From an uncultured archaeon (GTDB lineage: Archaea; Iainarchaeota; Iainarchaeia; Iainarchaeales; DATDZZ01), in contig CAYJVY010000003.1 in NCBI GenBank assembly GCA_964373795.1, forward strand, positions 29,383 to 61,382: a stretch of 32,000 bases of DNA. The letters run 5' to 3'. A program made the translations under genes and the position numbers. Of this stretch, positions 1,532-29,571 are shown one piece after another. The notes below the pieces were generated by a model. The model saw only the letters and a list, made by a program, of their open reading frames with translations. It ran no database searches and was not told the origin of the DNA. Every line of letters starts with the position of its first letter. Position 1 is the stretch's first letter.

Positions 1532-1560
1532 TTTTTAATGGAAAAAATTTTGTGATTAAA

Positions 1561-1737
1561 ATGTTGAAAATAACTCGTGCACTTCGAAGGTTTATTGACA
1601 GAGTAAAAAATTATCGCCTTATAAGAGAAGATGATGTTTCTGGTAAAAAAGAAAGAATTGGTTTTTTGAGATCTTGGAATATTAGAAAAAATCATCCTGA
1701 TTTGATTAAAGAAGGCCGCAAGCCAAGAAAAAAGTAA
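1561..1737 (+). CDS. Possible small basic protein (58 aa), family unknown
   Basis: ATG at 1561, in frame with track ORF 1420..1737 (MLKITRALRRFIDRVKNYRLIREDDVSGKKERIGFLRSWNIRKNHPDLIKEGRKPRKK). The upstream part of that ORF runs through the A-rich array and is probably not coding. I see no recognisable motif and no clear SD. Confidence 0.25.
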   Translation: MLKITRALRRFIDRVKNYRLIREDDVSGKKERIGFLRSWNIRKNHPDLIKEGRKPRKK

Positions 1738-1817
1738 ATTTTTTTAAACCACGCAGGCAGAGATTGTATACATAATCGCTAATCTTAATATTGTTTTCAT
1801 TATATAATGGATTAAAT

Positions 1818-3506: not shown

Positions 3507-3507
3507 T

Positions 3508-5655: not shown

Positions 5656-5665
5656 ATTAACTGTT

Positions 5666-6736
5666 TTATAGAAATAGTTTTTTCATTAATTTAATTAATT
5701 TGCGTGTTTGAAAAACTGTGCCCACATTCATTCTACAATAGTGTTGGTTGGAATTTATTTTTGTAATATCGCGTACAAAAATATTGTTTTTTTCTAAAAC
5801 TTTTATTAACTTTTTTTTAGTTATTGTTTTATGCTTAAAAAGAACAAAGCCTGAATGAGTTGGTATAACTTCGAAATTCATTTTAGGTAGTTCAATATTT
5901 ATTAAATTTATTGCATTGTTAACTTCTTTTACATAGTGCTTTACAAATCTTAAATCTTTTAGAATTGCTTCTCCAGCTATTTGAGCTAGTACGTTAACGC
6001 TTTTAAAGTTGTGAATCTTAGATAGATTTTCTATTATTTTATTGTTTGCAATAATATATCCTAAACGTAGCCCTGCTATAGATAATGCTTTAGAGAATGA
6101 ACGCGTGATAATAATGTTATCAAATTTATTTATTAAATTGGTACAACTTTTTCCATAAAATTCATAATATGCTTCATCTATTAAGAATAAAGAGTTTTTT
6201 TTGGCTTTAGCCAATCTAGTTATTTCTTTGATACTGTAAACACAAATATATGGATTAACTAAGTACACAATTTTTGTTTTAGAATTTATTTTATTGAAAA
6301 TATTTTCTACGTTGTTCTCTGAATTTATTTCATAGGGCATTTCTATTATTTTTGCTCCACGTATTTTTGGCCATATTAAAAAATTTGTATAAGTTGGAAT
6401 TGGAACAAGTACTTGGTTTCCTTCTTCTAAATATGTATTGCATATTAATTCATGTGCTTGATCTGAGCCATTAGTAATTAATATTTCATTAAACTTGACA
6501 TTTGCGTATTTTGCTATTTTTTCTTTCAAGCTTTTTTGAGATGGATCTGCATACCAGTTTACATGTCCTTTATGGCTTAGAAAATGCTTAATAGCTTTAA
6601 TAACTTTTTTTGGGGGAGTTATTGTTGATTCATTCCAATCAAGTTTAAACACATCTTGACTTTTTGACATTTTATCTAAGGAGTGAACAAGTTTGTATGG
6701 AACAATTTTGGCAACAAATTTGTTTACAGAAACCAT
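5666..6736 (-). CDS. PLP-dependent class I/II aminotransferase, HisC-like (histidinol-phosphate aminotransferase / CobD-like family)
   Basis: LDWNESTITPP, ITNGSDQAHELI, DEAYYEF and the PLP-lysine motif RSFSKALSIAGLRLGYIIAN. The usual NPNNPTG box is degenerate (VNPYICVYS). Confidence 0.75.
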   Translation of the reverse strand: MVSVNKFVAKIVPYKLVHSLDKMSKSQDVFKLDWNESTITPPKKVIKAIKHFLSHKGHVNWYADPSQKSLKEKIAKYANVKFNEILITNGSDQAHELICNTYLEEGNQVLVPIPTYTNFLIWPKIRGAKIIEMPYEINSENNVENIFNKINSKTKIVYLVNPYICVYSIKEITRLAKAKKNSLFLIDEAYYEFYGKSCTNLINKFDNIIITRSFSKALSIAGLRLGYIIANNKIIENLSKIHNFKSVNVLAQIAGEAILKDLRFVKHYVKEVNNAINLINIELPKMNFEVIPTHSGFVLFKHKTITKKKLIKVLEKNNIFVRDITKINSNQHYCRMNVGTVFQTRKLIKLMKKLFL

Positions 6737-14148: not shown

Positions 14149-14682
14149 GTGAGGAATTTTCTTTTAAATTTTTTAATTGATTTGTTTCTACTTTTATTTC
14201 CATTTGGCTATCTTAAATTAGTTGACAAAGAAAAAAACTTAATTAAAGAATTAGGATTAGTTTTCCAAGGATTAAAGAAAACATTTCTTAATGCATTAAT
14301 TTTATTTCTTGCATTGTTTTTTGTTTCCTTTATTCTTTCAACTGTTTTTACTTTTTTAAATTTAAATGACTTGGAAAAGGTTAGCGAAATAGCTTTAGAA
14401 TTAAAAAAATCTTATTTATTGTTAGCCTATCTTTTAATTTTTCGGATTTTTGCAGAAGAAATTTTTTTCAGAGGATTTTTAGTTAAAAAAACTGGAGTAA
14501 TAATTTCTTCAATTTTGTTTGCTTTAGCTCACATTGGATATGGATCAATAATTCAAGTCTTTGGAGCATTTATTTTAGGATTAATTCTGGCTTTAAACTT
14601 TAAATTAAATAAATCTTTAATTCCAAATATTTTAGCTCACATGGCTTACAATGCAGTAATAATTTTCATAATTTTAAAGTGA
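14149..14682 (+). CDS. CPBP-family intramembrane glutamic endopeptidase (CAAX protease/Abi family)
   Basis: Polytopic membrane protein with the motifs FAEEIFFRGFL (EExxxR), FALAHIGYG (FxxxH) and HMAYNA. GTG start 2 nt after the S27ae stop. Confidence 0.8.
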   Translation: MRNFLLNFLIDLFLLLFPFGYLKLVDKEKNLIKELGLVFQGLKKTFLNALILFLALFFVSFILSTVFTFLNLNDLEKVSEIALELKKSYLLLAYLLIFRIFAEEIFFRGFLVKKTGVIISSILFALAHIGYGSIIQVFGAFILGLILALNFKLNKSLIPNILAHMAYNAVIIFIILK

Positions 14683-15328: not shown

Positions 15329-16305
15329 TTTCGCTTGGAATAGAGTCAACTGCTCATACTTTTGGAGTAGGAATAGTTGATGAAAACTGTAAAGTTTTGG
15401 CAAATGAAAAACATGCTTTAATGAAAGAGTCAACTGGATTAATTCCAAGAGAGTTAATGGATCATCATTTAGAGTTTGCTGAAAAAGTATTAATTCAGGC
15501 TTTGGATAAAGCAAAAATTTCTTTAAAAGAAGTTGACTTAATTAGTTTTTCTCAGGGCCCTGGAATAGGGCAAGCATTAAAGGTTGGAGCAACTACTGCT
15601 AGAACGCTTTCGCTTTTACATGATAAGCCTTTGATTGGAGTTAATCATTGCATTGCTCATGTTGAAATTGGAAAAAAATTAACTCTTGCAAGAAATCCTA
15701 TTAGTGTTTATGCTTCTGGAGCTAATACTCAAATAATTGGATTTGAAGCTGGGAGATATAGAGTTTATGGAGAGACACTTGATATTGGAATTGGAAATTT
15801 ATTGGATTCTTTTGGAAGAGAAATTGGAATAGGTTTTCCTGCTGGCCCTAAAATAAGTGAAATGTATTATCAAGGGAAAAACTTAATTGAATTGCCTTAT
15901 ACTGTTAAAGGAATGGATTTAGTTTTTTCAGGGTTGTTTACTGAAGCAGTGCGAATGATTGGAAAAGTGAATGAAATTGATTTAGCTTTTTCTTTAATGC
16001 ATACTGCTTTTGCAATGCTTGCAGAGGTAACTGAAAGAGCTTTAGCTCATACTGAAAAAAATGAATTACTTTTAGTTGGAGGTGTGGGAGCTTCAACTGT
16101 TTTACAGGAAATGCTTAAAGAAATGTGTGAGCAAAGAAATGCAAAACTTTTTTTTCCTGAACGACAGTTTTTAGTTGACAATGCTGCAATGATTGCATGG
16201 ACTGGATTAATTTCTTTTGCAAATGGAAATAAATTAAATTTATTTGAAAGTGAAATTCTTCCTTATCAAAGAGCTGATCAAGTTCAAGTTAATTGGGTGA
16301 AATAA
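15325..16305 (+). CDS. kae1: tRNA N6-adenosine threonylcarbamoyltransferase Kae1 (KEOPS catalytic subunit), not fused to Bud32
   Basis: ISLGIESTAHTFGVGIV, GVNHCIAHVE (metal-binding His pair), LVGGVGAS, DNAAMIAW. The ATG overlaps the sua5 stop (ATGA). Confidence 0.93.
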   Translation: MISLGIESTAHTFGVGIVDENCKVLANEKHALMKESTGLIPRELMDHHLEFAEKVLIQALDKAKISLKEVDLISFSQGPGIGQALKVGATTARTLSLLHDKPLIGVNHCIAHVEIGKKLTLARNPISVYASGANTQIIGFEAGRYRVYGETLDIGIGNLLDSFGREIGIGFPAGPKISEMYYQGKNLIELPYTVKGMDLVFSGLFTEAVRMIGKVNEIDLAFSLMHTAFAMLAEVTERALAHTEKNELLLVGGVGASTVLQEMLKEMCEQRNAKLFFPERQFLVDNAAMIAWTGLISFANGNKLNLFESEILPYQRADQVQVNWVK

Positions 16306-16829
16306 TGTTTTCCCGTTCGACAACTACTGAAATTAGAATTCAAATTCCTGACATTAATGGTTTCAGAAAAAAATTGCATGCATTGAAAGCAAAAAAACTT
16401 TTCACTTATTATTTTAATGATTTTATTTTTGTGCCTAAAACAAAAAAATTTGATTTAAATAAAGAGTCAATGAAGTTGCGAATAGTGAAACTTAATGGCA
16501 AGAAAAGCTTTAAATTAATTTATCAGTTAGTGAAATGGAGTAAAGGCATTAAAGTTTTACAAAACGGTTTTAAAATTGATTTGAAGAGCTTGTCTCAAGG
16601 ATTTGAATTGCTTTCTCATTGGCAGTTTAAAAAACTTTTTTCTTTCACTAGAAAAGGAGAAAAATATTCTCTTAAAGACTGGACTTTTGTTTTAGAAAAA
16701 ATTCAAGGACTTGGATGGTTAATTGAAATTGATGGTTCAATTAAAAAAATTAGGCTTACTCAAGAAGTGCTTGGATTGAAGAAAACAGTTAACAAATCAA
16801 TCCCTTGGCTTGTAGAGCATTCTAAATGA
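16305..16829 (+). CDS. CYTH-like (CyaB/thiamine triphosphatase fold) protein with a degenerate N-terminal ExExK motif
   Basis: Block-by-block resemblance to archaeal CYTH proteins: TEIRIQI (in place of ExExK), YYFNDFIFVP, MKLRIVKLNGKKSFKLIYQ, FSFTRKGEKYSLKDWTFVLEKIQGLGWLIEIDG, VLGLKK. The ATG at 16305 overlaps the kae1 stop (TAATG). The track start at 16293 is TTG. Confidence 0.6.
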   Translation: MFSRSTTTEIRIQIPDINGFRKKLHALKAKKLFTYYFNDFIFVPKTKKFDLNKESMKLRIVKLNGKKSFKLIYQLVKWSKGIKVLQNGFKIDLKSLSQGFELLSHWQFKKLFSFTRKGEKYSLKDWTFVLEKIQGLGWLIEIDGSIKKIRLTQEVLGLKKTVNKSIPWLVEHSK

Positions 16830-17951
16830 TTTTCTTGATTTTTTTCTTCCTTTTCCTTCTTTCACTTTTCTTAAAAGAGTTGAAAGAGAGTCTTGAACTG
16901 CTGAAATCATTTTCCAATTAACTGCTTTTGAATTCATTGAAATTCCTGGAGCAGTTAACTGGCTATTAACTGTATGTTTTTTTCTTAATCCAGTTATATT
17001 ATGGTCTTTGAATTGAATTTTTAAAGCAATTTTGTTTTGACAAATTTTTTCAATTTTGTCATAAGTTTCATTTATTACATTTGAAACAATTTTTTCATCT
17101 ATTTCATCTAGTTTTGGAAGGTTAACGAATTGAATTTCTTTTTTTTCTTGCATTGAATAAAGGTATACTTCTATTAAGTCTCTTGGAGTAACTATTCCCA
17201 TTGGTTTTGTTCCTTCAAGTAGTACTACATGGCTTCCTTTTGGTTCATTTAATTTATTAATTATTATTGAAATGCTTTCCATTGGAGAAGAAGTTTTAAC
17301 GTCTAAAATAATGTCTCCACTAATTGGAGCTGATGATAATTCAATTTTGTTCAATTCATCTCTATTGAATTTTGTTTCTTTTCTTGTAATTGGTAGACTT
17401 AGGTGTTTCTTTAAAATGTCTCTAAAAGAAAGAACTCCACTTAAATCTCCTTTTTCATTTACTACAATTAGTCTATTAATGTTGTTTTTTTTCATTAAAT
17501 GAATTGCTTCCCCTAGGCTAGCATTTTCATTTACTGTGATTAGTTTTTTAGTGCAAACGTCTTTTGCTTTTAGTCCTTTAAGTGAGGGATGGTTTTTAAT
17601 TGCATTAATTATATCTCTTGCTAGAACAACTCCTCTTACTTTATTGTCTTTGTCGACTACTGCTAGCATTCTGGAATTAGCTGTATACATTAATTCTGCA
17701 ATTCTTTCAAGTGAATCATCTTTATTTAATGTGGGGAATTGTTGAATTATTTTTCCAACTTTTAATTTAGTAAAATCAGTTGAAACTCTGTACAAGTTTC
17801 TTTTTGAAGTAATTCCTAAATAAGTTCTTTTTTCATCTAAAACTACTGCAGCTCTTTCGTGAGTAGCTTTTAATTGTCCAATGAAATGAGTTACTACGTC
17901 ATTCTTTGATAAAGCCAAAAAATTAGTTTTCATTAAATTCTCTGCATTCAA
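16797..17951 (-). CDS. Four-CBS-motif (two Bateman modules) protein with a C-terminal RaiA/HPF-like domain and a basic tail
   Basis: There are four repeats of the CBS pattern (e.g. AAVVLDEKRTYLGITSKRNL, MLAVVDKDNKVRGVVLARDII, RLIVVNEKGDLSGVLSFRDIL, HVVLLEGTKPMGIVTPRDLI). The C-terminal ~95 aa resemble ribosome hibernation factors (see findings). The 3' end overlaps the CYTH-like gene by 33 nt (convergent). Confidence 0.85.
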   Translation of the reverse strand: MNAENLMKTNFLALSKNDVVTHFIGQLKATHERAAVVLDEKRTYLGITSKRNLYRVSTDFTKLKVGKIIQQFPTLNKDDSLERIAELMYTANSRMLAVVDKDNKVRGVVLARDIINAIKNHPSLKGLKAKDVCTKKLITVNENASLGEAIHLMKKNNINRLIVVNEKGDLSGVLSFRDILKKHLSLPITRKETKFNRDELNKIELSSAPISGDIILDVKTSSPMESISIIINKLNEPKGSHVVLLEGTKPMGIVTPRDLIEVYLYSMQEKKEIQFVNLPKLDEIDEKIVSNVINETYDKIEKICQNKIALKIQFKDHNITGLRKKHTVNSQLTAPGISMNSKAVNWKMISAVQDSLSTLLRKVKEGKGRKKSRKSFRMLYKPRD

Positions 17952-18023: not shown

Positions 18024-18722
18024 CTAGTTTAGAGCCTTGTTTTGTTTTTGAAAATTTACTATAAATTTATACAGATACCAAATTCCTATAAATAAAATAG
18101 CTATAATAATTATTTTTAAATACTCTGGAAGGCTTTCCTGAGTTAAATGAATTTTTTCATCTATTAATGTCCATAAAATAAATGCAGTAATTAAAATAAA
18201 AGTTAATTCTAATAAAATGAATGCCAATGTCCTGGATTTTTCAGTTGAAGTGAAAAGTTTTTGTTTTAATAATTGTTTTTTTGCATTTGTTTTTTCTTTT
18301 ATTTCTTGCAATTTTTTGCTTTGAAAAATTCTTGCAAAAAGTCTAACAATTAAATCAATTAAAGTAATTATTGAATAATAAAATCCAAGTAAAAATACTA
18401 GGATAAAATTTTTTGAATTTTCTTTTGCTTTAAAGAGTTTTTCTTTTGTTTTTTGTGTATAAATTTCTCTTAAATCTTTTGGAGTTACTCTCCCAAACAT
18501 TTCGGGTTTAAGTTTTTCTTTTGTTACAATGAAATGCATTAAAAGAAATAACGCAAATAACATTATTGCAACAAAGTAGTGAAATCCTTCTCCTTGAAGA
18601 GCTATTTCAAATGGCTGGAGTTTTATTAAAAGAATTCTGAAAAAAATAACTCCGATTGAAATAGCTAAAAATATTGCTTCTAAGCCAAGCAAAATTAAAG
18701 GGTATTCGTTTTTTTCTTGCAT
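18024..18722 (-). CDS. Hypothetical polytopic membrane protein (about 5 TM helices, two Lys-rich loops)
   Basis: Hydrophobic segments LILLGLEAIFLAISIGVIFF, YFVAIMLFALFLLMHFIV, FILVFLLGFYYSIITLIDLIV, LAFILLELTFILITAFILW, IIIIAILFIGIWYLY. It lies 30 nt downstream of, and co-directional with, the cysteine-repeat gene. Confidence 0.65.
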   Translation of the reverse strand: MQEKNEYPLILLGLEAIFLAISIGVIFFRILLIKLQPFEIALQGEGFHYFVAIMLFALFLLMHFIVTKEKLKPEMFGRVTPKDLREIYTQKTKEKLFKAKENSKNFILVFLLGFYYSIITLIDLIVRLFARIFQSKKLQEIKEKTNAKKQLLKQKLFTSTEKSRTLAFILLELTFILITAFILWTLIDEKIHLTQESLPEYLKIIIIAILFIGIWYLYKFIVNFQKQNKALN

Positions 18723-18752: not shown

Positions 18753-21347
18753 TTAAGGTTGAACAGCGCTTTGGCATCCTTCCTTTAATTTTTCATCTTT
18801 TATTTCACGACATAATGACACTAATTTTTGATTTACTGCAACATACTTGTTACAGTAATCTTTTGAAAATAATCCTTCACTTGTCTGAGTTTTAATTGCA
18901 TTGCAAATAGAAAATTTGTCTGTTTTAATTTTTTTATTAATTAAACTTAAGCCAATTTTTGCATGACATTCCCCTAGTCTTTGAGTTTGATATGGATTTA
19001 ATTTATCACACCACTTACTTTGATCTAAATTAAATGCAATTGTTTCAAAACAAGTATAATTTGCTTCAGAGTTTTTATTTAACTTTAAACAAGTTTTTTC
19101 TTTTTCTTCATCTGAAACCATTTTTTCAGCTGCTTTTGCATAGCATTCTCCTTTAGATGGCTCGTTTTCTATAATGTCGCAAACGCTTGGATCTTTCTTG
19201 TTTTCAGAGAAATAAAATGCACATTGTTTCTTGTGTTGAGAAGCAACAGATTGAATGCCTGCACAAATGTTTGGATCGTCTAATTTTTTTGCCATTTCAA
19301 ATCTGCAAACATTTTGTTTAAATTCATCCTTTATTTTATCACAAGTTTTCAAATCAGGGTTTTTTAGAACTGCTGTTGAATAACAATTATCTCTATTCGC
19401 ATCTAAAGAAATTTTTTCACAAAAATTTGGGGAATTAAATTTAATTGCTACATCATAAATACAATCATCTCGATTGTTGCCTTCAAAGCTTTCTAGCCTT
19501 GCAGCTAGCGGAAGATTTAAACAAGAGGAAGGATTTTTTTCCCCAAATGCAGAATTATAATAGCATTTTCTTTGCTGTTTTGCATCTGAAATATTTTTAC
19601 ATAATTCACTGCTAGGAGTTTTTAATGCAACTGAATTCACACAATTTGCATAATCGTTTTTGTCAGCAGCAATTTTAATGCAAATCTTGTTATCCTCTAA
19701 TTTTAATGCTAAATCAGTAAAGCATTGGCTTCTTCTATTTCCATAAGACGTTGTTTTAATTTCCTCACATACTTCTGGATTTTTTGTTTTCAAAGCAATT
19801 TTTTTCAAGCAATCATCTCTAGAATCTACATTTTCTTGAATTTTTGTGCAAGCAGTTGCATCTAATACAAGTTCTGCAGTTGAATTCAAACATTCATTTC
19901 TAGCCTTTTTATCAGCAATTTTTTCACAAAAACTGTAATCAAATTGTTTTTTTGCAATAAAAGTTAAGCATTCGGCATTTAATTCTTTTTCTTCAACTTT
20001 TTCACAAAACTCTGGGGAATTAGATGTTTTAGCTAAATTCAAAAAGCATTGACTTCTAGGAGTTGCATCAAGAATTTCTTCACAAGTAGTTGAATCACTT
20101 AAAAGTTTTGCAATACTGCTAATGCAATTGTTTTTTTCTGAATCATTGTTTTGAATTTTGTTACATACTTGTGAATCTTGTTTTTTTAATGCCACGTTTT
20201 TATAGCAAGAGTTTTTTGTTTCAGTTAACTTAATTGAATTGCATTCATCTTCTTCAATGTTTTTTAATGCAATTTCTTTAAAGCAGTTATCTGTATTTGT
20301 TGGATTAATTGAGTTACTGCAAACACTTGCTGAAAGCTCTTTTAATGCAATTGATTTAATGCATTCATCTTGTAAATCGATTGTTGAAAGCTCTTTACAT
20401 GATTGGATATCTAATTTAAATGTTGCAAGAGCTTTAATGCATGAATCCTTTGATTTAACTTCACTGATTTTTTCACAAAGCTTTTCATCTTTTAAGCTGG
20501 ATGCAAGTGAATTCAAGCAACTGTCTTTTATTTTTGCATCAACGATGTTGCCGCAAAGCGTTTCTTGTTTTAATGCTAATGCAATTGATTTAATGCATTC
20601 ATCGCTTTTAGATGGAGTGTCAATTTTTTTGCATACCTGAAACTCCTTTAAACTTTTTGCAAGAGATCCAAAGCATGAATCTCGTTGCTTTAAATCTAAA
20701 ACGTTTTTACATGAGTCAGGGTTTTTGGATTTTTTTGCAACATTAATGAAGCAAGAGTCTTTTGCTTCACGGTTTTCAATTCCTCCGCAAACCTTTTCAG
20801 CTCTGGGGTTTTTTTCCTTTGATTTTTCTGTTTTACATGATTCTAATTCGCTTTCAAATTTTTCTTTATCGGTTTTTGAATCAATTCCTTTTTCTTTTAA
20901 TTGTTTATCGCATTCAGATTGAATTGAATCAATTAATTTTGCTGCAATTTCTTTGTCGCAGGATTCTTTTCTTTCTTGATTTGTTATTCTGTCACAAATT
21001 GTTTCATCTAACGCTTTAAGTGAAATATCTTTATAGCAGTTGTGTTTGTCTTTTTCTCCAGAAATTCCATTACAAGAATCTGCATTTAAACTTAAATCAG
21101 CTGTTTTTTTGAAGCAAGAGTCTTTTATTTTTTGTTCACTTATTTCTTGGCATTGAGTGAAATCTTTTTCTTGAACAGCTAATTCGTTGAAGCAAGAGTC
21201 TTTTTTTATTTCACTTAGCTTCAGGCAATCCTCTTTTTTAAGTGTTTTAGGAGGCTTGACTCCATTTTTTTCTGGTATAATGCATCCTGCAATTACAAGT
21301 ATTAAAACCAAAAACAATGGCAGTAAAATTTTGAAATTAATTTTCAT
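18753..21347 (-). CDS. Large cysteine-rich repeat surface protein with signal peptide and lipobox (864 aa, about 28 repeats of about 26 aa)
   Basis: N-terminus MKINFKILLPLFLVLILVIAGC (lipobox-like IAGC). The body is a regular repeat C-x2-[IL]-x5-8-[KR]-[DN]-x-C-[FYIL]-x2-[IVL]-A-x8-10, e.g. CEKISEVKSKDSCIKALATFKLDIQS / CKELSTIDLQDECIKSIALKELSASV / CSNSINPTNTDNCFKEIALKNIEEDE. Confidence 0.85.
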   Translation of the reverse strand: MKINFKILLPLFLVLILVIAGCIIPEKNGVKPPKTLKKEDCLKLSEIKKDSCFNELAVQEKDFTQCQEISEQKIKDSCFKKTADLSLNADSCNGISGEKDKHNCYKDISLKALDETICDRITNQERKESCDKEIAAKLIDSIQSECDKQLKEKGIDSKTDKEKFESELESCKTEKSKEKNPRAEKVCGGIENREAKDSCFINVAKKSKNPDSCKNVLDLKQRDSCFGSLAKSLKEFQVCKKIDTPSKSDECIKSIALALKQETLCGNIVDAKIKDSCLNSLASSLKDEKLCEKISEVKSKDSCIKALATFKLDIQSCKELSTIDLQDECIKSIALKELSASVCSNSINPTNTDNCFKEIALKNIEEDECNSIKLTETKNSCYKNVALKKQDSQVCNKIQNNDSEKNNCISSIAKLLSDSTTCEEILDATPRSQCFLNLAKTSNSPEFCEKVEEKELNAECLTFIAKKQFDYSFCEKIADKKARNECLNSTAELVLDATACTKIQENVDSRDDCLKKIALKTKNPEVCEEIKTTSYGNRRSQCFTDLALKLEDNKICIKIAADKNDYANCVNSVALKTPSSELCKNISDAKQQRKCYYNSAFGEKNPSSCLNLPLAARLESFEGNNRDDCIYDVAIKFNSPNFCEKISLDANRDNCYSTAVLKNPDLKTCDKIKDEFKQNVCRFEMAKKLDDPNICAGIQSVASQHKKQCAFYFSENKKDPSVCDIIENEPSKGECYAKAAEKMVSDEEKEKTCLKLNKNSEANYTCFETIAFNLDQSKWCDKLNPYQTQRLGECHAKIGLSLINKKIKTDKFSICNAIKTQTSEGLFSKDYCNKYVAVNQKLVSLCREIKDEKLKEGCQSAVQP

Positions 21348-21419
21348 TAAACCACTTAAAGTGTTATTAGGTATTAAATTACATATTGTATTTAAATTTA
21401 TTCTGCGTTATTGTTTAGC

Positions 21420-22250
21420 ATGAATGAGGTTTTCTTTAATACTTTTTCTGAGAGAATAAAATCTATTGTTGAATCAAAAGCATTTAATTTTCTTGTAACC
21501 TTTGTTATTCTTGTTTCAGTGTTTTTAGTTGGATTAAGCGTTCAACCTTCAACTAGTGCAGCTATGCATGAAATAATTTTTTTTGTTGAAGTAATTATTC
21601 TTGTTTTTTTTAGTATTGAAATCTTAATGCGAATTATTGCTGAAGGAAGCAAGCCTTTAAATTTTTTTAAAGATTCTTGGAATGTAATGGATTTTGTTAT
21701 TGTTTTACTGGCTTTCCTGCCTATTCAAAACAAGATGATTCTTTTAGTTAGACTTGTAAGAGTATTGAGAATCTTAAGGCTTTTTAGGGCTTTCACTAAA
21801 CTTCGATTGATTATTAATGGAATGATTAATAGTTTTGCTTCAATTGTTTATGTTGGAATGTTGTTATTGATTTTGATTTATTTTTTTTCAGTTATAGGGG
21901 TATCAGCTTTTTCTGAAATTGATCCAATTAATTTTGGAAGCATGTGGAAAGCTTTTTTCACTCTTTTTCAAGTTCTAACACTTGAAGGCTGGAATACGAT
22001 AATGGTGCCAGTTAACAAGGCTTATCCAATTGCTGGTCCAATTTATTTTACTTCATTTATTATTATTGGCACAATGGTTGTAATGAATTTAATTTTAGGA
22101 GTTATAGTAACTAATATGAATAAAGCCATGAAAGAATTAGATGAAAGCGAGCAAAAAGAGAAATCAAATGAAGAACTAATTCTGCAAAGAGTTAAAGAAA
22201 TTGAAAAAGAACTCAAATTAATTAACAAGAAACTTTCAAAAAATAGCTAA
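21420..22250 (+). CDS. Voltage-gated cation channel of the single-domain BacNav/NaChBac type (6TM, C-terminal coiled coil)
   Basis: S4 has Arg at every third position (LVRLVRVLRILRLFRAF, nt ~21741-21803). The pore is FFTLFQVLTLEGWNTIM (TLEGW at 21978-21992). S6 is IYFTSFIIIGTMVVMNLILGVIV, and the tail is heptad-like (ELILQRVKEIEKELKLINKKL). I prefer the ATG at 21420 to the track's TTG at 21411. Confidence 0.85.
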   Translation: MNEVFFNTFSERIKSIVESKAFNFLVTFVILVSVFLVGLSVQPSTSAAMHEIIFFVEVIILVFFSIEILMRIIAEGSKPLNFFKDSWNVMDFVIVLLAFLPIQNKMILLVRLVRVLRILRLFRAFTKLRLIINGMINSFASIVYVGMLLLILIYFFSVIGVSAFSEIDPINFGSMWKAFFTLFQVLTLEGWNTIMVPVNKAYPIAGPIYFTSFIIIGTMVVMNLILGVIVTNMNKAMKELDESEQKEKSNEELILQRVKEIEKELKLINKKLSKNS

Positions 22251-22426: not shown

Positions 22427-23794
22427 ATGGTTGCAAAGAATGCAAAAATTGAAGAAGTTTTTTCAATAGTGAAAAAGGTTGCACAAGCAAAGTCTGCAAA
22501 AGAAGTAATGGATTTGCTTGATGGAAACTTTGAAAGTCTACCTCTTACTGCAAATGCCATGGATCCTCATATGTATGTCAAAAAAAACACTGCCTTATTT
22601 GAACGCGTATTGATAACTGAGTACAGGTTTTTTGACAAACCAGGTGTAGGATTCAAGTTATTGCCTGAAATAAAAATTGAGAAAGCAAAAGTTGTTTCTG
22701 TTTTCGGAAAAGATTTCAATAATGTAAAAGGCAAAGATGATTCTGATTTTGATTATAAATTGGTTTATGAAATTAGTGACAAATTTGTTAGTTTCGAATT
22801 CAGCAAGGAATTGCTGAAAGGCATAAGTGTTGAGGACAAGAAATTTGTTGAGGATGAAGAGCGACAAAAAAAAGCAGTCGAAGAATACCAAGCAAGGGAG
22901 CAAGCAAGGCCAAAGACTGAAGACAAGGTTTTAGCCTATGTTGTAATGCAATTATTTGATATAGTAAAAAAAGAGCTAGACGACGATGTCAAAATTAACG
23001 GGCCTAGAAAACTCCCCATGAACTATTTAGAAACTGGCGTAGCGGAAAAATTGTCAAAACTTGGAACTTCAAAAACCGAAAAACAAGGATATTCTCCTGA
23101 AGAAAGAAAAGACGCAATTGATTTTTATTACAAGTTAAGGGATGAGAACAGGTTATCAGAGCTTTCAGGAGACTTGCAAGTAATTTATCCTGGGAGCAAG
23201 ATTCTTGAACGAATTTCTCCAAGAGTTGAAAAACTGGATTCTTTAAAGGATTTTGTTTTAAGCAGAAAAACAGAAGAAATAAATTTAAGTTATTATTTGA
23301 AATCAGATCCTGCTGGATTCTTTGTTTTAGGCTTTGATGCAAACAACAAAATTGTTTCAGATTTAGTTAAAGCGCTTGATGATAAAAACGTTCAAATTTT
23401 TGGTGGAGCAGCTTTACTGCTTGGCAGAATTGAAGATAAAAACTCTTTTGAAAAACTTTTAAAGAAATTAGAAGAAGTAAAAAAATTAGCAAAACAAAAT
23501 TCTGGAACTTATTCAGAGCCAAGGGCTTGGGCAGGAGAATCAGAGCCAACATATAATCCTTCTGATTATGAGTTAGCTGAATCAATTATTGGCGACGCAA
23601 TAATTTCCGTTGTCAAAAAAAATGAATTGAAGAAAACTGGGAAAATAAGTTTTAATAGATTCATGTCATCTCATATTGACGTAGTTGGATCTGCTAGATT
23701 ATTTTATTGGACAAAAATGGAAGTAGAATTTGATTTGGCAACGCATTTGGAAAAATCAAATAGTGATTTGAATTCTGGATTCATTAAAGGCTAA
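22427..23794 (+). CDS. Hypothetical soluble protein (455 aa), family unknown, with one HEAT-like repeat
   Basis: Long ORF with GAGGA upstream and no TM segments. The segment LVKALDDKNVQIFGGAALLLGRIEDKNSFEKLLKKL resembles a HEAT/PBS-lyase-type repeat. I recognise no catalytic motif. Confidence 0.75.
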   Translation: MVAKNAKIEEVFSIVKKVAQAKSAKEVMDLLDGNFESLPLTANAMDPHMYVKKNTALFERVLITEYRFFDKPGVGFKLLPEIKIEKAKVVSVFGKDFNNVKGKDDSDFDYKLVYEISDKFVSFEFSKELLKGISVEDKKFVEDEERQKKAVEEYQAREQARPKTEDKVLAYVVMQLFDIVKKELDDDVKINGPRKLPMNYLETGVAEKLSKLGTSKTEKQGYSPEERKDAIDFYYKLRDENRLSELSGDLQVIYPGSKILERISPRVEKLDSLKDFVLSRKTEEINLSYYLKSDPAGFFVLGFDANNKIVSDLVKALDDKNVQIFGGAALLLGRIEDKNSFEKLLKKLEEVKKLAKQNSGTYSEPRAWAGESEPTYNPSDYELAESIIGDAIISVVKKNELKKTGKISFNRFMSSHIDVVGSARLFYWTKMEVEFDLATHLEKSNSDLNSGFIKG

Positions 23795-23821: not shown

Positions 23822-24265
23822 TTAGGCTAAACGTCTAGGTCTTTGTTTGAGTTCAGAATCAATTGTTTTAGATGCTTCTTTTAGTTTTGAAAAAATTCTT
23901 GAAACATCTTCTTCTAATTCAGAAATTGTTCCTTGCAAAGAACTAGAGCGAGTTAAATAATATTTTCCTGTTTTTTCAATCAAACCGGATTTACGTAAAT
24001 TATTTAAGTGATTAATTGTGGCTCCTCTGCTGATTTTAAGTCTTTTAGCTATTTGAGTAGAGGAAATCCTTTGCCCTAACTCAGTAGAAGAAACTATTTC
24101 CCTAAACGCTGAAGCAGCTGTTTTTCCTTTATCAATGTTCTCAAAAAAGCCAAGTGTTTTACAAATCCAATAAAATTCATCATCTAAGTCATAAGTAATT
24201 GGCTTTGGAATACGCCTAATAGTTAACTCAAAAGAAGGTTCAATTAATGAATGCATTAAAGGCAT
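23822..24265 (-). CDS. Winged-helix transcriptional regulator, divergent from the hsp20-grpE-dnaK-dnaJ locus (candidate heat-shock regulator)
   Basis: HTH segment ISSTQIAKRLKISRGATINHLNNLRKSGLIEKTGKYYL. The ATG at 24265 (MPLMHSLIEP...) is preferred, because the track start at 24307 is TTG and would run into the inverted repeat. Confidence 0.75.
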   Translation of the reverse strand: MPLMHSLIEPSFELTIRRIPKPITYDLDDEFYWICKTLGFFENIDKGKTAASAFREIVSSTELGQRISSTQIAKRLKISRGATINHLNNLRKSGLIEKTGKYYLTRSSSLQGTISELEEDVSRIFSKLKEASKTIDSELKQRPRRLA

Positions 24266-24297
24266 GTAATAGTTTAAAACAAAACAATTTAAAAGAG

Positions 24298-24342
24298 TTT
24301 TGTCCAAAAAATGCCTAAATTGTTTAAATTATTTGGACAAAA
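24298..24342. promoter_or_regulatory. 11-bp perfect inverted repeat TTTTGTCCAAA-N23-TTTGGACAAAA in the divergent regulator/hsp20 intergenic region (candidate operator)
   Basis: Read directly: 24298-24308 and 24332-24342 are exact reverse complements. The spacer contains TAAATT twice. The repeat sits between the regulator ATG (24265) and the hsp20 ATG (24419). Confidence 0.45.
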
Positions 24343-24390: not shown

Positions 24391-24418
24391 TTTAAAGATT
24401 TTTTTGGAGGCGATATTA

Positions 24419-24871
24419 ATGGTGTTTGATATTGAACCATTTAACTTTAAAAAGAAAAAGTTTTTTGAAAAATTCGATGATTTGTTTCCAGAAATTTTTT
24501 CAGAAATTAAGTCTTCCTGGTTGGATGAAAAAAATTTCGCTAGATTTCCTTTAATTGATTTAATTGATGAAGGAGCTAGCTTGAAAATTGTTGCAGAACT
24601 TCCAGGCGTTGACAAAAACGATATTAAATTAGATGTAAGCAATAACTCTGTAAGTCTTTCAGCTGAACACAAGCAAGAAGCTGAAAATAAAGGAAAATCT
24701 TTTTATAGAAAGGAAAGAAGTCTTCAAAAATTTTTTAGAAGCTTTTCCTTGCCTGCAGAGGTCTTGCCAAGCAAGGTGAAAACAAGTTTTAAGAACGGAG
24801 TATTAGAAGTGTCTTTGCCTAAAAAGCACCCAGAACACAAAAAAGACTTTGTCAGAGTAAAAATTGATTAA
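24419..24871 (+). CDS. hsp20: Small heat-shock protein, Hsp20/alpha-crystallin family
   Basis: PLIDLIDEGASLKIVAELPGVDKNDIKLDVSNNSVSLSAEHK...ERSLQKFFRSFSLPAEV...KTSFKNGVLEVSLPK. The ATG at 24419 lies 8 nt after GGAGG (the track start at 24404 is TTG). Confidence 0.9.
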   Translation: MVFDIEPFNFKKKKFFEKFDDLFPEIFSEIKSSWLDEKNFARFPLIDLIDEGASLKIVAELPGVDKNDIKLDVSNNSVSLSAEHKQEAENKGKSFYRKERSLQKFFRSFSLPAEVLPSKVKTSFKNGVLEVSLPKKHPEHKKDFVRVKID

Positions 24872-24889
24872 AGTGTTTGAGGAATTTTT

Positions 24890-25471
24890 TTGACTGAAAA
24901 ACAAAACTTAAACAAAGCTGAGGACAAGCAATTAAAGCAAGTAGAAAATGAAGAAAAAAAGCTTGAAAAAGAATTAATTGAAGCTCAAGAAAAATTAGCA
25001 GATTATACTGAGACTCTTCAAAGACTTCAAGCAGAATTTGAGAACTATAAAAAACGCGTTGACAAGGAGCGAACAAAATTGTTAGAGTTTGCAAATGCGC
25101 ATTTGATTTCAGATTTTCTTTCAATAATTGATTCTTTTGAAAACGCAATTCAAGTAGTTGAAAAAACAGAAAAATACTCTAAAGAAGATGCAGTGAAAGG
25201 ATTGAAACTGCTTTTCCAGCAAACACTTGATTTAATGAAAAGACATGGATTGAAGGAAATCAAATCAGAAGGAGAAAAATTTAATCCAGAATTTCATGAA
25301 GCAGTTTTACAGGAAAGCATTGCAGAAAAACCCGACTTCCTTGTATTACAAGAATTTCAAAAAGGATATTTATTGAATGGAAAGGTTTTAAGGCATTCAA
25401 AGGTTTTGGTGAATAAGCATCCAGAAGAAAAACATGAAGGCCTTGAAAAAAATGTAAAAGAAAAAAAGTGA
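24890..25471 (+). CDS. grpE: Nucleotide exchange factor GrpE
   Basis: LQRLQAEFENYKKRVDKERTKLLEFANAHLISDFLSIIDSFENA...FNPEFHEAV...VLQEFQKGYLLNGKVLRHSKVLV. It appears to use a TTG start after GAGGA, because no in-frame ATG lies nearby. Confidence 0.9.
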   Translation: MTEKQNLNKAEDKQLKQVENEEKKLEKELIEAQEKLADYTETLQRLQAEFENYKKRVDKERTKLLEFANAHLISDFLSIIDSFENAIQVVEKTEKYSKEDAVKGLKLLFQQTLDLMKRHGLKEIKSEGEKFNPEFHEAVLQESIAEKPDFLVLQEFQKGYLLNGKVLRHSKVLVNKHPEEKHEGLEKNVKEKK

Positions 25472-25475
25472 GAAA

Positions 25476-25604
25476 ATGGTTGAATTAAATTCATTAAAGT
25501 TTTCATCTGAAGAGCAAGAAAAATTTTTAGAAGATTTAAGGATTAAAAAAATCGTTCAACAAATGCGTTTACAAAGTGAAGTAAGAATTGGTTTTGCCGC
25601 TTAA
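25476..25604 (+). CDS. Possible 42-aa ORF between grpE and dnaK ([42 protein letters not shown])
   Basis: The ATG lies 5 nt after the grpE stop and the ORF ends inside the GC-rich island. It is below the track cut-off, has no recognisable family and no clear SD. Confidence 0.25.
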
Positions 25605-25648
25605 CGTGGCACGCGAACGCGCGCGAGACAGCGATGGAGGAAATTAAA

Positions 25649-27526
25649 ATGAGTAAAATTATTGGAATTGATTTAGGAACAAGCAATTCAGCTGCAGCTG
25701 TTTTAGAAGGAGGAAAGCCTAGAATTATTCCTTCAGCTGAAGGAGTTTCTCTTTATGGAAAAGCTTTTCCTTCAGTTGTAGCTTTCACTAAAGATGAACA
25801 AATGCTTGTAGGCGAGCCAGCTAAAAGACAAGCTGTTTCAAATCCAGAGGGAACAATTACTGGAGCTAAAAGAAAAATGGGATCAAATTATTTGTTTAAG
25901 GTTAGAAGAAAAGAATTCACTCCTCAACAAATTTCTGCATTTATTTTGCAAAAAATTAAAAAGGATGCAGAAGAATTTTTAGGCGATAAAGTAACTAAAG
26001 CAGTTATAACTGTTCCAGCTTACTTTGATGATAATCAAAGACAGGCAACAAAGGATGCAGGAGAAATAGCTGGATTAGAAGTTGTAAGAATAATTAACGA
26101 GCCAACTGCTGCTTCACTTGCATATGGCTTGGATAAGAAAGCAAAAAACTTGAAAATTCTTGTATTTGATTTTGGTGGAGGAACATTGGATGTAACTATA
26201 ATGGAGTTAGGAGAAGGAGTGTTTGAAGTTAAATCCACTAGCGGAGATACTCAGCTTGGTGGAAGAGACATGGATGACTTAATAGTTAATTGGATTGTTT
26301 CTGAATTCAAGAAAACAGATGCAGTTAATTTATTGAAGGATTCAATTGCAATGCAAAGAGTTAGAGAAGCAGCTGAAAAAGCCAAAATAGAGTTGTCAAC
26401 TACTCTTGAAACTCAAATTAATTTGCCTTACATTACAGCTGATTCTTCTGGGCCAAAGCATTTGAATATTTCTTTTAATAGAGCAAAATTAGAGGAATTA
26501 ATTCATCCATTAATTAAGAGATGCGAGCATCCAGTTCAACAAGCTTTAGCTGATGCAAAATTAACTGCTGCAGAAATTAGTAAAGTTATTTTAGTTGGAG
26601 GGCCAACTAGAATGCCTGTAATTCAACAATTTGTTGAAAAAGTTGTAGGAATTAAAACTGAAAGAGGAGTTGATCCAATGGAATGTGTTGCAATGGGTGC
26701 AGCAATTCAAGCAGGAGTTTTAGCTGGAGAAGTAAAAGATGTATTATTGTTAGATGTTACTCCTCTTACTTTAGGAATTGAAACCTTGGGAGGAATTAGA
26801 ACTCCTTTAATTCCTAGAAACACTACTATTCCTACTCGAAAATCTCAAGTTTTTTCAACTGCTTCAGATAATCAACCAGCAGTAGATATTCATGTATTGC
26901 AAGGGGAAAGAGAAATGTCTGCAGATAACAGAAGTCTTGGAAGATTTCAGTTAACAGGAATTCCTCCTGCTCCTCGCGGAGTACCACAAATTGAAGTAAC
27001 CTTTGATATTGATGCAAATGGAATAGTTCATGTAACAGCTAAAGATTTAGGAACAGGTAAAAGTCAATCAATTAAGATTGTTGCCTCTCAAAAACTTGGT
27101 GAAGACGAAATTGAGAAAATGAAAAAAGAAGCAGAAAAGTTTTCAGAAGAAGACAAGAAAAAAAAGCAAGAAATTGAAACAATTAATTTAGCTGATCAAA
27201 CAGTTTTTCAAACAGAGAAAATGCTTCAAGAATTAGGAGAAAAAGTTTCTCCTGCAAAGAAAAAAGAAGTTGAAGAAAAAATTTCAGAATTAAAAAAATT
27301 GCTTGAAGAAGAGAAAAAAGACGCAAAAAAAATTAAAGAAAAATTAGATGAATTAAATAAATCCTTGCAAGAAATTGGTTCAGAGATTTACAAAAACGTT
27401 AATCCTCAACAAGGAAATCAAACTAATCAGCAAAACACTCAAGAAGAAAAACCCGGAGATGAAAACGTTGTAGACGCGGATTTCAAAGTAGAAGATGAAG
27501 ATAAAAAAGGAAAGAAAAAACATTGA
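25649..27526 (+). CDS. dnaK: Molecular chaperone DnaK (Hsp70)
   Basis: [65 protein letters not shown], and an E/K-rich lid and tail. The ATG at 25649 lies 8 nt after GGAGG. The track's ATG at 25634 would include that SD. Confidence 0.95.
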
Positions 27527-27547
27527 AGAAATACTTAATAATTTCTT
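27526..27547 (+). terminator. Weak AT-rich hairpin AAGAAAT-N8-ATTTCTT followed by a T-rich tract, immediately after the dnaK stop
   Basis: Read directly: a 7-bp stem (27526-27532 / 27541-27547), an 8-nt loop, then TCCTTTCAATTATTTT. It could modulate dnaK/dnaJ stoichiometry or be a chance feature of AT-rich DNA. Confidence 0.2.
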
Positions 27548-27662
27548 TCCTTTCAATTATTTTAGGTGTACTATTGAGATTCAATTTTTTTAAGAGAAAG
27601 AAGGCATCAAAGGATTCTTCTACTTTAGTTTCTAATACTCGGATCTACTGAAGAGTGATTAA

Positions 27663-28811
27663 ATGGCTAAAGATTATTACGATGTTTTGGGTTTAAAGAA
27701 AGGAGCTTCAATTGATGAAATTAAGTCTGCTTACAAAGAATTAGCGAAAAAGTTTCACCCAGATGTTTCAAAAGAGCAAAATGCTGAAGAAAAATTTAAA
27801 GAAGTTCAAGAAGCTTACAGTGTTTTAAGTGATCCTCAAAAAAAAGAAAATTATGATAGGTTTGGGTCAAGCTTTGAACAGTTTGGGGGCTTTGGCCCAG
27901 GAACAGGTTTTGGGGGATTTGATTTTAGAGGAGGAGATTTTGGATTTGAAGACTTGTTTCAAGGCTTTGGAGGATTTGAAGACATTTTTGATGTATTCAG
28001 TGGAAGAAAAACTAAGCGAGGCCCTAGAAGAGGAAACGATTTACAGTTTTCATTAAATATTTCTTTTGAAGAAGCAGTTTTTGGAGTTGAAAAAACCATT
28101 GAGGTTTCAAGAATAGATTCTTGTGAGTCATGTCATGGAAGTGGAGCTGAAAAAGATTCAAAGAAAAAAGTTTGCAGGGAATGCAATGGCTCTGGAATAA
28201 AAGAAACTGTTAAGAAAACAATGTTTGGAGTTTTTTCAACTAGAACTACTTGCCCTGTTTGTAAAGGAGAAAAAGAATTAATTGAAAATCCTTGCAAGAA
28301 ATGCAATGGCCTTGGAATAATTAAAGTTAAAAGAAAAATTTCTTTAAAAATTCCTGAAGGAATTGATAATGGAAATTCTCTTAGATTGCATGGAGAAGGA
28401 AATGCAGGGGAAAGAGGAGGACAAAATGGAGACTTGTTTGTAGTAATTTTTGTTGAACCTCACGACGTGTTTAAAAGAGATGGTTTGGATTTGTTTTCTG
28501 AAGTGCCTTTAAGTTTTAGTGAAGCAGTTTTAGGAGCAGAAATAGAGCTTCCAACTATTAGAGGAAAAGCTAAACTAAATATTCCTTCAGCAACTCAAAC
28601 TTCAACTATTTTTAAATTAAAAGGACAAGGAGTTAAGTCTTTAGATAGAGAAAGAATTGGAGATCAATTTGTTAAAGTAATAATTCAAACCCCAAAGCAT
28701 TTAACTAAAAGACAGAAAGAATTATTTGAAGAACTAGCAAAAGAAGATGAAACTAAAACTCAAAGAAAAGGTTTTTTTGATTCAATTAAAAAAGCCTTTA
28801 AAGGACATTAA
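27663..28811 (+). CDS. dnaJ: Co-chaperone DnaJ (type I: J domain, G/F region, four CxxCxGxG zinc motifs)
   Basis: DYYDVLGL...KKFHPDV, G/F-rich linker, CESCHGSG / CRECNGSG / CPVCKGEK / CKKCNGLG, and the C-terminal substrate-binding domains. Confidence 0.95.
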
Positions 28812-28815: not shown

Positions 28816-29571
28816 TTAAATGAATTTAGGCGGATTATTAGTTGCAAGAGAATCTAAATCTGAAAGAATTCTCATTAATCTTTCCACTCCAAAAAACAAA
28901 CTAACCTTTGTTTGATGTTCTTCTCTTAAAGCTTTACAAAACTGTAAAACTCTTTTTTGCCTCCCAGTTTGACTCATTAACCTACTAAGCGCATTATAAA
29001 AGCTTTGAATTTCTCTATCAATTCTTTCCTTTGCATTCAAAACATGGCCTTGAAAAACTTCATTTCTAATATCTCTGGCATTTAATTCATCCATTAAAAT
29101 TCTTATTAATCGTTCTTCAATAAAGTCATGAAATTCTCTTTCTTTTTCTTCTAATTCAACTAGTTTGCCTAAAACATCACTTACTTTTTCTTGTTCTTCT
29201 GGAGCTAGCCTTGAGTAAATGCCTCTTATAGTGCTAGCTGCCTTTGCAGCTCTTCTATGAACTATTGATTGTTTTTTTAATAATTCATGCCATTCAACTC
29301 TTAAAGCAAATCTTAAAACAGTTCTAAAAGCATCCTTATTTCTAGTTCTTTCGAAAACAATTTCAGCAAAGTCTTTGATTTTTTTCCAGTCAACTAATAG
29401 TTTTGCATTTTCTTCATTCAATGAAATACTTTTTTTAATCGCTTGTTTTTCTCTTCTTCCAATTAAAAGTTTTCCTCTAAGCAAGGAATGTGCTTGTGAA
29501 GAAATCTGAGCATGTCTGTTTGTAGGAGGTTTTGGAAAACGTGTTGTAGTAGTTTTACGCATACAATCCAT
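28816..29571 (-). CDS. Hypothetical all-helical, Arg-rich protein (251 aa), family unknown
   Basis: Long ORF convergent with dnaJ (4-nt gap) and divergent from truD (61-nt gap). It is richer in Arg/His/Gln than its Lys-rich neighbours. I recognise no motif. Confidence 0.7.
   Translation of the reverse strand: MDCMRKTTTTRFPKPPTNRHAQISSQAHSLLRGKLLIGRREKQAIKKSISLNEENAKLLVDWKKIKDFAEIVFERTRNKDAFRTVLRFALRVEWHELLKKQSIVHRRAAKAASTIRGIYSRLAPEEQEKVSDVLGKLVELEEKEREFHDFIEERLIRILMDELNARDIRNEVFQGHVLNAKERIDREIQSFYNALSRLMSQTGRQKRVLQFCKALREEHQTKVSLFFGVERLMRILSDLDSLATNNPPKFI

Follow-up and report, generated by a model that had tools for sequence, protein, structure and literature searches.

Which function could be exerted by an archaeal protein in which cysteines make up 7% of all residues and recur along almost the entire chain at regular distances? 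This question is raised by a gene encoding 864 amino acids (aa) in a stretch of 32,000 nucleotides (nt), referred to here as the window, from an uncultured archaeon of the Iainarchaeota (contig CAYJVY010000003.1, positions 29,383 to 61,382). DPANN archaea and bacteria of the candidate phyla radiation (CPR) depend on surface contact with other cells, and annotation is missing for most of the surface proteins predicted in them. The original prediction, made from the sequence alone, regarded the gene product as a lipobox-bearing, disulfide-stapled surface solenoid of unknown family and as a candidate for host adhesion. Judged by its sequence profile, the 26-residue cysteine-pair repeat of this protein is not an orphan and belongs to a very large uncurated family. 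We regard it as an uncurated family of α-solenoid repeats that is set apart by the length of its unit and the arrangement of its cysteines, and as a probable variant of disulfide-stapled α-solenoid surface proteins.

The protein contains 61 cysteines. Besides Cys22, which is located in the lipobox, the remaining 60 are spaced 12, 14, 12, 14 residues nearly throughout, resulting in 30 cysteine pairs with a period of 26 residues and a single K/E-rich interruption. This alternating spacing is far beyond chance: 46 of the 59 gaps are exactly 12 or 14 residues long, while the mature chain, shuffled 10,000 times, gave 3.5 such gaps on average and never more than 11. The same periodicity is apparent in the self-identity of the protein, which is highest at lags of 26, 52, and 78 residues (0.185, 0.149, and 0.154) against a background of approximately 0.07. 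The units between residues 187 and 394 are exactly 26 residues long and those at the C-terminus (residues 780–864) are longer and degenerate. A hidden Markov model (HMM) derived from the protein itself identifies 30 units, and an HMM built solely from proteins of other organisms identifies 28, in agreement with the predicted number of about 28 two-cysteine units; the predicted K/E-rich linker is likewise present at residues 146–186. The units are mutually 25–45% identical and Tandem Repeats Finder did not find a tandem repeat in the gene at the DNA level, so the array is ancient and diverged, and neither recent amplification nor misassembly accounts for it. The motifs by which c-type cytochromes, Fe-S proteins or thioredoxin-like proteins would be recognized (CXXCH, CXXC, or clustered cysteines) are absent from the 864-aa protein, in which the smallest spacing between two cysteines is 11.

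Used as a single sequence, the protein has no match in a database of 5.8 billion proteins, in Pfam, in NCBIfam, or in the PDB, and a single-protein search for relatives in genome and metagenome contigs found none. Two profiles were central to the analysis: A1, consisting of 26 overlapping double units of the 864-aa protein, and A2, a gapless alignment of 80 four-unit segments, of which 5 are from the window protein and 75 from about 50 other proteins. Word-indexed searches of the 5.8 billion proteins with A1 and A2 yielded 0 and 2 matches, respectively, because the degenerate repeat has too few exact 5-mers in common. Run exhaustively against 1.84 billion cluster representatives, A1 matches 8,135 of these at E ≤ 1e-3, 3,238 at E ≤ 1e-10, and 313 at E ≤ 1e-30, with a 927-aa protein as top match (E = 1.2e-96), and the matches visibly carry the same repeat unit. 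Importantly, the HMM built from the units of other organisms scores the 864-aa protein with 259.5 bits (E = 1.2e-74 at library size), while composition-matched shuffles reach at most 9 bits; since the window protein did not contribute to this HMM, its family membership is not circular. The family consensus is CEKISDQELKDSCYKEIAKKKKDPSI, in motif notation C-E-K-I-x-D-x3-[KR]-D-x-C-[YF]-x2-[VI]-A-x4-D-P-x-[IL], i.e., C-x11-C-x13. Besides the two cysteines at positions 1 (C1) and 13 (C2), conserved positions are I4 (67%), [KR]10 (78%), [DN]11 (67%), [YF]14 (76%), [VIL]17 (80%), A18 (81%), and [DN]23 (76%), and positions 5–9, 12, 15–16, and 19–22 are variable. Both C1 and C2 are cysteines in all HMM-aligned units in which the residue is aligned, and the HMM detects solely units with two cysteines.

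None of the curated resources covers this repeat. In Pfam, including Sel1, TPR, HEAT, and LRV, nothing was found for the 864-aa protein at E ≤ 1 and nothing for 10 family members at E ≤ 0.1. In the 864-aa protein and 30 relatives, the repeat is not covered by any Pfam or NCBIfam family, and searches of the PDB sequences with profiles A1 and A2 gave no match up to E ≤ 10. A literature search for an earlier description of the repeat found nothing specific. The assignment to an unknown family thus stands in so far as no curated family or solved structure matches and the profile search did not lead to a characterized family; with 8,135 representatives, the family is not rare. No catalytic domain was found among the 31 family proteins scanned, the 864-aa protein included. 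Accessory regions in the relatives are mostly unmatched; those which are recognizable comprise a cytoplasmic zinc ribbon preceding a transmembrane (TM) segment and DUF5667, as well as extracellular-type fusions, namely a bacterial TSP3 repeat, a weak Fib_succ_major match, and a weak Ig-like (SdrD_B) match. A sub-family of 900–970 aa (P0013, P0017, P0033, and P0070) contains two arrays around a conserved non-repeat module of ~200–300 residues and has a conserved N-terminal TM region in common, none of these parts being matched in Pfam.

The taxonomic distribution was assessed with a degenerate DNA pattern covering two adjacent units, using one genome per GTDB species; by our own estimate, well below one match is expected by chance. 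The pattern matched 16 genomes and 37 metagenome contigs, and a scan of viral contigs gave no matches. Among the 16 genomes are DPANN archaea (two Iainarchaeum, two Woesearchaeota, two Micrarchaeota, and one Altiarchaeales), CPR bacteria (Saccharibacteria, Paceibacterota, and Nealsonbacteria), two ANME-1/Methanophagales, one Methanosarcinales, one unclassified archaeon, and two unclassified bacteria; one family representative is annotated by NCBI as Altiarchaeota. The repeat family spans both prokaryotic domains and extends beyond episymbionts. The link to an episymbiotic lifestyle, as drawn originally, is thereby loosened, and an occurrence that covers archaea and bacteria, ANME-1 and episymbionts alike, argues against using the family as a simple marker of symbiosis. 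The family could have moved between the domains by horizontal transfer. At one locus of Candidatus Nealsonbacteria (L015), three paralogues are arranged in tandem (2–1342, 1396–3003, and 3016–4191), which indicates local expansion of the gene family in some lineages.

An extracytoplasmic location of the 864-aa protein is supported by its N-terminus, MKINFKILLPLFLVLILVIAGC, which is composed of an n-region with two lysines and a hydrophobic core of 15 residues, followed by I-A-G-C. These four residues, at positions −3 to +1, fit the lipobox [LVI][ASTVI][GAS]C that is stated for bacterial and archaeal lipoproteins (PMC12462473), with MKINFKILLPLFLVLILVIAG-C as the complete predicted signal sequence. 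The predicted lipobox signal peptide is borne out by equivalent N-termini among the relatives: of the 150 best representatives, 89 carry a lipobox-like [GAS]C signal peptide, and the others have mostly a single N-terminal hydrophobic or TM segment (judged by eye in the first 60 listed). Loss of the export signal in relatives would have spoken for a cytoplasmic protein; instead, 51 of the 56 complete genes at 52 genomic loci are anchored, 22 by a lipobox and 29 by an N-terminal hydrophobic anchor, and most of the five genes without an anchor call can be put down to the start codon chosen or to the threshold. At the named genome loci, the lipobox tends to be archaeal and the TM anchor tends to be found in CPR. 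Archaeal lipobox proteins carry a thioether-linked archaeol which is installed by AliA/AliB, as shown in Haloferax; lipidation has been demonstrated solely in Haloferax volcanii, and AliA is reported in DPANN (PMC12462473). The positively charged n-region, the hydrophobic core, and the I-A-G-C motif resemble those of archaeal AliA/AliB substrates, and by this analogy Cys22 is probably thioether-linked to archaeol.

The number and the order of the cysteines inform on how they are paired. After removal of the lipobox cysteine, the count of cysteines is even in 81 of the 89 lipobox-bearing members. Where the array ends can be classified, the first cysteine is of the C1 type in 80 cases versus 19, and the last is of the C2 type in 91 cases versus 4. 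Arrays thus run from C1 to C2, which fits C1 and C2 as partners within a unit and not C2 with C1 of the next unit. Across 150 proteins, 2,119 steps are canonical (C1 to C2 or C2 to C1) and single losses are almost absent. Loop insertions occur mainly between C1 and C2 (16 versus 7), the distance from C2 to the next C1 being nearly fixed at 14, and this concentration of insertions is the pattern of a stapled, insertion-tolerant loop. Joint loss of C1 and C2 was judged by tests of the array termini and of the gap pattern, since both cysteines are required for a unit to be detected by the HMM and the detected units are therefore uninformative. In both clear cases of cysteine-free units the two cysteines were lost together; in P0125 hydrophobic residues take their place, and the motif is otherwise intact (RDD-I-YESFA). 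Cysteine counts do not prefer multiples of four (33 versus 48), which disfavours Cys4 metal sites common to adjacent units, and histidine accounts for only 0.7% of the family residues. These sequence statistics favour the view that C1 and C2 of each unit form a structural pair, for which a disulfide is the simplest explanation, in line with the pairing proposed originally. An exported DsbA/MdbA-like oxidoreductase is reported to be widespread in CPR bacteria, where its gene often adjoins VKOR (10.1101/335083).

Structure prediction by AlphaFold2 (AF2) supports an α/α solenoid of helix-turn-helix units for the 26-residue repeat. The full-length protein, modelled from the single sequence, has a mean predicted local distance difference test (pLDDT) of 68, with most repeats at 70–85, and is predicted to be all-helical with one short and one long helix per unit; confidence is low for the signal peptide and the linker and also for the last 80 residues at the C-terminus. 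With alignment A2, four units (residues 187–291) were modelled with a pLDDT of 98.1 and a predicted TM-score (pTM) of 0.88, all five models exceeding 97.7, which agrees with the helix-turn-helix units suggested before. The helices of the four-unit model comprise positions 7–21, 24–29, 33–47, and onward. Within a unit, positions 7–21 are predicted to form a helix of 15 residues with C2 as its seventh residue, and positions 24–26 together with positions 1–3 of the next unit a helix of six residues, the fourth being C1. The pair D23-P24 is typical of helix N-caps, and positions 4–6 form a turn. C13, Y14, V/I17, and A18 of the long helix and I26, C1, and I4 of the short helix lie on single helix faces, and these conserved residues would thus constitute the predicted core. 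Foldseek searches with the full-length model return solely generic giant α-solenoids (SKI3, Ctr9, CRM1, and transportins) at TM-scores of approximately 0.1. For the four-unit model nothing was found in the PDB at E ≤ 1e-3, with no Hcp entry among the top 50 matches, and nothing significant was found among viral structures. Of the Sel1/TPR-like α-solenoid geometry for which a test had been suggested, the α-solenoid is supported by the models; a significant match to Sel1 or TPR structures did not appear.

Taken together, we consider it rather likely that the protein is a surface lipoprotein whose disulfide-stapled α-solenoid acts as a non-enzymatic binding or spacing scaffold. According to this model, a Sec-type signal peptide with lipobox would export the protein and Cys22 would anchor it to archaeol, from where a Pro/Lys-rich tether would lead into the long α/α solenoid. 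Each unit would consist of the six-residue helix with its D-P N-cap and C1, a variable, insertion-tolerant loop, the 15-residue helix, which would place C2 on its hydrophobic face (C13, Y14, V/I17, and A18), and a two-residue turn. A disulfide between C1 and C2 of the same unit would staple the short helix and the loop to the long helix, and the resulting ladder of about 30 disulfides could stabilize a very thin solenoid outside the cell. As α-solenoids rise by about 1 nm per unit, some 30 units would result in a contour length of a few tens of nm. Such a rigid rod would present a ridge of hypervariable C1–C2 loops and variable helix faces and could serve as a scaffold for binding or spacing, either on the surface of the cell or in the space that separates the membrane from the surface layer (S-layer). 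This putative role is suggested by analogy with other α-solenoids. Several observations weigh against this model. No gene neighbour is conserved at the 52 loci; C1 and C2 are about one helical turn away from ideal register, by a rough estimate from DSSP boundaries; and the high AF2 confidence was obtained with an idealized gapless repeat alignment and may overstate certainty. Moreover, many carriers are strict anaerobes (ANME-1, methanogen relatives, and groundwater DPANN), for which extracellular disulfide formation is not a given, and a gene for a thiol-disulfide oxidoreductase was not found within the 32-kb window.

The scaffold could have a more specific role as adhesin for host or partner cells, in which the solenoid projects from the surface of an episymbiont and its variable loops bind a component of the host S-layer or membrane. 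Such a role would be served by the predicted surface anchoring and by C1–C2 loops that are hypervariable and tolerate insertions, and it would agree with a family rich in DPANN and CPR genomes. The array length is widely variable, and this variation together with the three tandem paralogues in one CPR genome is as for diversifying surface binders; some members are also fused to adhesion-type extracellular modules (TSP3 and the weak Ig-like SdrD_B). However, the presence of the family in ANME-1/Methanophagales and Methanosarcinales, which are not episymbionts, weakens the proposal of host adhesion, for which direct evidence was not found, and neither pili nor secretion or other attachment genes are linked to the family at the 52 loci. 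Close orthologues for a test of diversifying selection were not found among the genome and metagenome contigs. Adhesion is, moreover, a special case of the scaffold and binding explanation and not a distinct mechanism, and it appears rather unlikely to us.

A different role for the cysteines themselves would be that of a metal-, sulfide-, or redox-active ladder, in which reduced thiol pairs bind polysulfide or metals (Zn, Fe, Ni, Cu) or pass electrons or thiol-disulfide equivalents along the rod. The 60 invariant cysteines predicted along the hydrophobic faces of stacked helices would provide such a ladder, and most carriers live without oxygen, ANME-1 and relatives of methanogens among them; the failure to find a Dsb-like gene in the window also points in this direction, as does the weak, sub-threshold cytochrome b561-like match of the adjoining membrane protein with five TM segments (5-TM protein). 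Yet this neighbour is itself free of cysteines, scores below the Pfam threshold, and is found beside no other family member, and the 864-aa protein lacks CXXC and CXXCH, with histidine being rare. The cysteine counts lack the preference for multiples of four that Cys4 sites between units need, and the one clear substitution case has hydrophobic residues in place of the cysteines, which is typical of buried structural pairs. We therefore regard a redox or metal ladder as very improbable; should the stacked cysteines nevertheless engage in redox chemistry or metal binding where oxygen is absent, the rod might work outside the cell as a thiol-based device for binding or relay. It is similarly improbable that the repeat belongs to an established family (Sel1-like/Hcp, TPR, HEAT-like, or LRV) from which its sequence has drifted too far to be recognized. 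The general architecture of stacked antiparallel helix pairs is the same, and the best structural neighbour in the PDB is the archaeal helical-repeat protein Ton1535 (3zpj). But the period of 26 residues contrasts with the roughly 33–47 residues of canonical α-solenoid units, and the Pfam searches described above gave no Sel1, TPR, HEAT, or LRV match. Hcp repeats bridge their two helices by a disulfide, as is proposed here, but the profiles find no PDB chain although crystal structures of HcpB and HcpC are deposited (PMC1941758), and the pLDDT-98 model had no significant Foldseek match. The converse and bolder claim, that the family is a distinct, previously undescribed α-solenoid class with a short period and one disulfide or thiol pair per 26 residues, and perhaps a major surface protein across DPANN, CPR, and methane-cycling archaea, is in our view improbable as well. 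The scaffold model remains our preferred explanation, and the features of the gene are given accordingly in Table 1.

Table 1. Coordinates of the repeat gene, the parts of its product, and the adjoining spacer, in positions of the window.
Feature	Position	Strand	Basis and remarks
Complete gene, 864-aa cysteine-pair repeat lipoprotein (predicted)	18753..21347	(-)	Open reading frame (ORF) list, composition, cysteine spacing; end includes stop codon
Signal peptide and lipobox, residues 1–22, MKINFKILLPLFLVLILVIAG-C	21282..21347	(-)	Sequence; Cys22 is the predicted lipid-attachment residue
Pro/Lys-rich tether, residues 23–40, IIPEKNGVKPPKTLKKED, joining lipid anchor to first repeat	21228..21281	(-)	pLDDT <50 (full-length model)
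N-terminal block, 4 cysteine-pair units, residues 41–145	20913..21227	(-)	Unit parsing; pLDDT 70–83 (single-sequence model)
K/E-rich interruption, residues 146–186, with one oddly spaced cysteine pair (C146, C171)	20790..20912	(-)	Low-confidence long helices, pLDDT <50
Main array, 25 cysteine-pair units, residues 187–864	18756..20789	(-)	Unit parsing; residues 187–291 modelled, pLDDT 98.1
Divergent spacer, 72 bp, A/T-rich, common to repeat gene and channel gene	21348..21419	(.)	Sequence

The ORF of the repeat gene starts with ATG and an upstream extension is impossible. Within the spacer, the ATG is preceded by a TATA-like sequence, AAATTTAAATA, at a distance of ~45–55 nt and directly by a stretch that contains GGT, and the spacer would have a promoter role. 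The genomic distances described previously were reproduced: a gene encoding a 232-aa protein with five predicted TM segments is located 30 nt downstream of the repeat gene, and the 72-bp distance to the divergent channel gene holds if the latter starts at the ATG at 21420. The 5-TM protein (18024–18722, minus strand) has a sub-threshold match to the cytochrome b561 Pfam family Ni_hydr_CYTB (E = 5e-4, 20 bits versus a cutoff of 30). An assignment of this protein as a DsbB- or VKOR-like oxidase was ruled out, its translation containing zero cysteines. The channel gene (21420–22250, plus strand) encodes a single-domain voltage-gated-type cation channel of ~276 aa (Ion_trans, E = 1e-45), here in an archaeon whose genome is small and rich in A/T. 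Neither the 5-TM protein nor the channel has a counterpart beside family members at the 52 other loci, so their linkage to the repeat gene, and hence the suggestion that they are genomic partners, is probably incidental. No other neighbour family recurs at more than 4 of the 52 loci, and those that do recur are housekeeping (PTH2, ABC ATPase, GIY-YIG) or come from closely related contigs.

Adjacent to the 5-TM gene, 16797–17951 (minus strand) encodes a protein of 384 aa that combines four CBS domains (E = 1.6e-35) with a weak C-terminal match to the S30AE/ribosome-hibernation factor (E = 0.016) and by its domain content may be an unusual CBS-regulated ribosome-associated protein. A CBS homologue with the same weak domain pairing and 22% identity is encoded at 4522–5688 of metagenome locus L042. 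The order of repeat, membrane protein, and CBS genes in L042 was rejected as a conserved operon and is coincidental, as the middle gene has no BLAST similarity to the 5-TM gene of the window and carries a putative motif of GPR1/FUN34/YaaH-type acetate channels. The window as a whole is an archaeal housekeeping region of ~30% G+C, which encodes the ribosomal proteins S2, L7Ae, S6e, and S24e as well as aIF5B, aIF2-gamma, Rpb7-like RpoE', Sua5, Kae1, TruD, and GluRS; tRNA and Rfam matches were not found in it. By its base composition and the genes it encodes, a DPANN-type origin of the window is plausible. Further genes comprise a contiguous HSP20-GrpE-DnaK-DnaJ cluster (24404–28811, plus strand) with a divergent ArsR/MarR-type helix-turn-helix (HTH) regulator (23822–24307, minus strand), a 248-aa protein with a TrmB-type HTH (E = 1e-17) and a weak PLD-like domain (E = 7e-5; 631–1377, plus strand), and an Rce1-like CAAX-type intramembrane protease (E = 1.3e-14; 14149–14682, plus strand) directly upstream of the Sua5-Kae1 pair for t6A synthesis. 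Five ORFs of 178–455 aa are without a Pfam match at E ≤ 1e-3: 4486–5655, 22427–23794, and 16293–16829 on the plus strand and 3508–4248 and 28816–29571 on the minus strand.

The repeat family offers a clean sequence definition, a high-confidence predicted fold, and a consistent extracytoplasmic topology for thousands of members without a match in Pfam, NCBIfam, or the PDB, and a curated model would allow naming of these genes across metagenomes. For repeat-protein engineering, the family is of interest as well, since it provides a naturally occurring helical repeat that is unusually short and may be stapled by disulfides.

Among the known systems, the Hcp proteins of Helicobacter (HcpA, HcpB, and HcpC), which are Sel1-like, resemble the repeat family as secreted α/α solenoids of tandem helix pairs, with one cysteine pair per unit in the family described here. 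A Sel1-like repeat comprises ~36 residues or more (36–44) and the cysteine spacing in Hcp is shorter, about seven residues, whereas the unit described here has 26 residues with C-x11-C and one predicted helix of just six residues. Furthermore, the family has a lipid or TM anchor and archaeal and CPR carriers, whereas Hcp proteins belong to Epsilonproteobacteria. No PF08238 match, no PDB sequence match, and no significant Foldseek match connect it to the Sel1-like/Hcp proteins. In Hcp, the disulfide bridges the two helices of each Sel1-like repeat, and crystal structures of HcpB and HcpC are available for comparison (PMC1941758). The canonical α-solenoid classes have been listed (PMC11514114). 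Ton1535 from Thermococcus onnurineus (3zpj), the only neighbour of high probability, matches the four-unit model with a Foldseek probability of 0.99, a query-normalized TM-score of 0.48, and a root-mean-square deviation of 3.4 Å over 73 columns at 22% identity; its E-value is just 0.2, the match covers fewer than three units, and neither family profile detects it by sequence. For this protein, too, the literature search found nothing specific.

The LRV repeat of Azotobacter vinelandii (PDB 1LRV) is a right-handed solenoid of 24-residue units in which a longer α-helix alternates with a short 3-10 helix. The predicted alternation of a 15-residue and a six-residue helix in the family resembles this arrangement and may serve as a lead. 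LRV is cytoplasmic and is not known to have a cysteine pair per unit; in Pfam the family has no LRV match, and 1LRV is absent from the top 50 Foldseek matches in the PDB. TPR-type envelope lipoproteins are composed of 34-residue units that are not known to contain cysteine pairs, and their genes usually accompany, or are genetically linked to, those of the partner machinery, whereas the repeat family has no conserved neighbour, no match to Pfam TPR or the TPR clan, a period of 26 residues, and generic similarity to TPR/HEAT giants at a TM-score of ~0.1. BamD, LpoA, NlpI, and PilF, being lipid-anchored non-enzymatic scaffolds of this type which organize bacterial envelope machinery by protein–protein binding, nevertheless provide the functional analogy on which the proposed scaffold role of the archaeal 864-aa protein is modelled.

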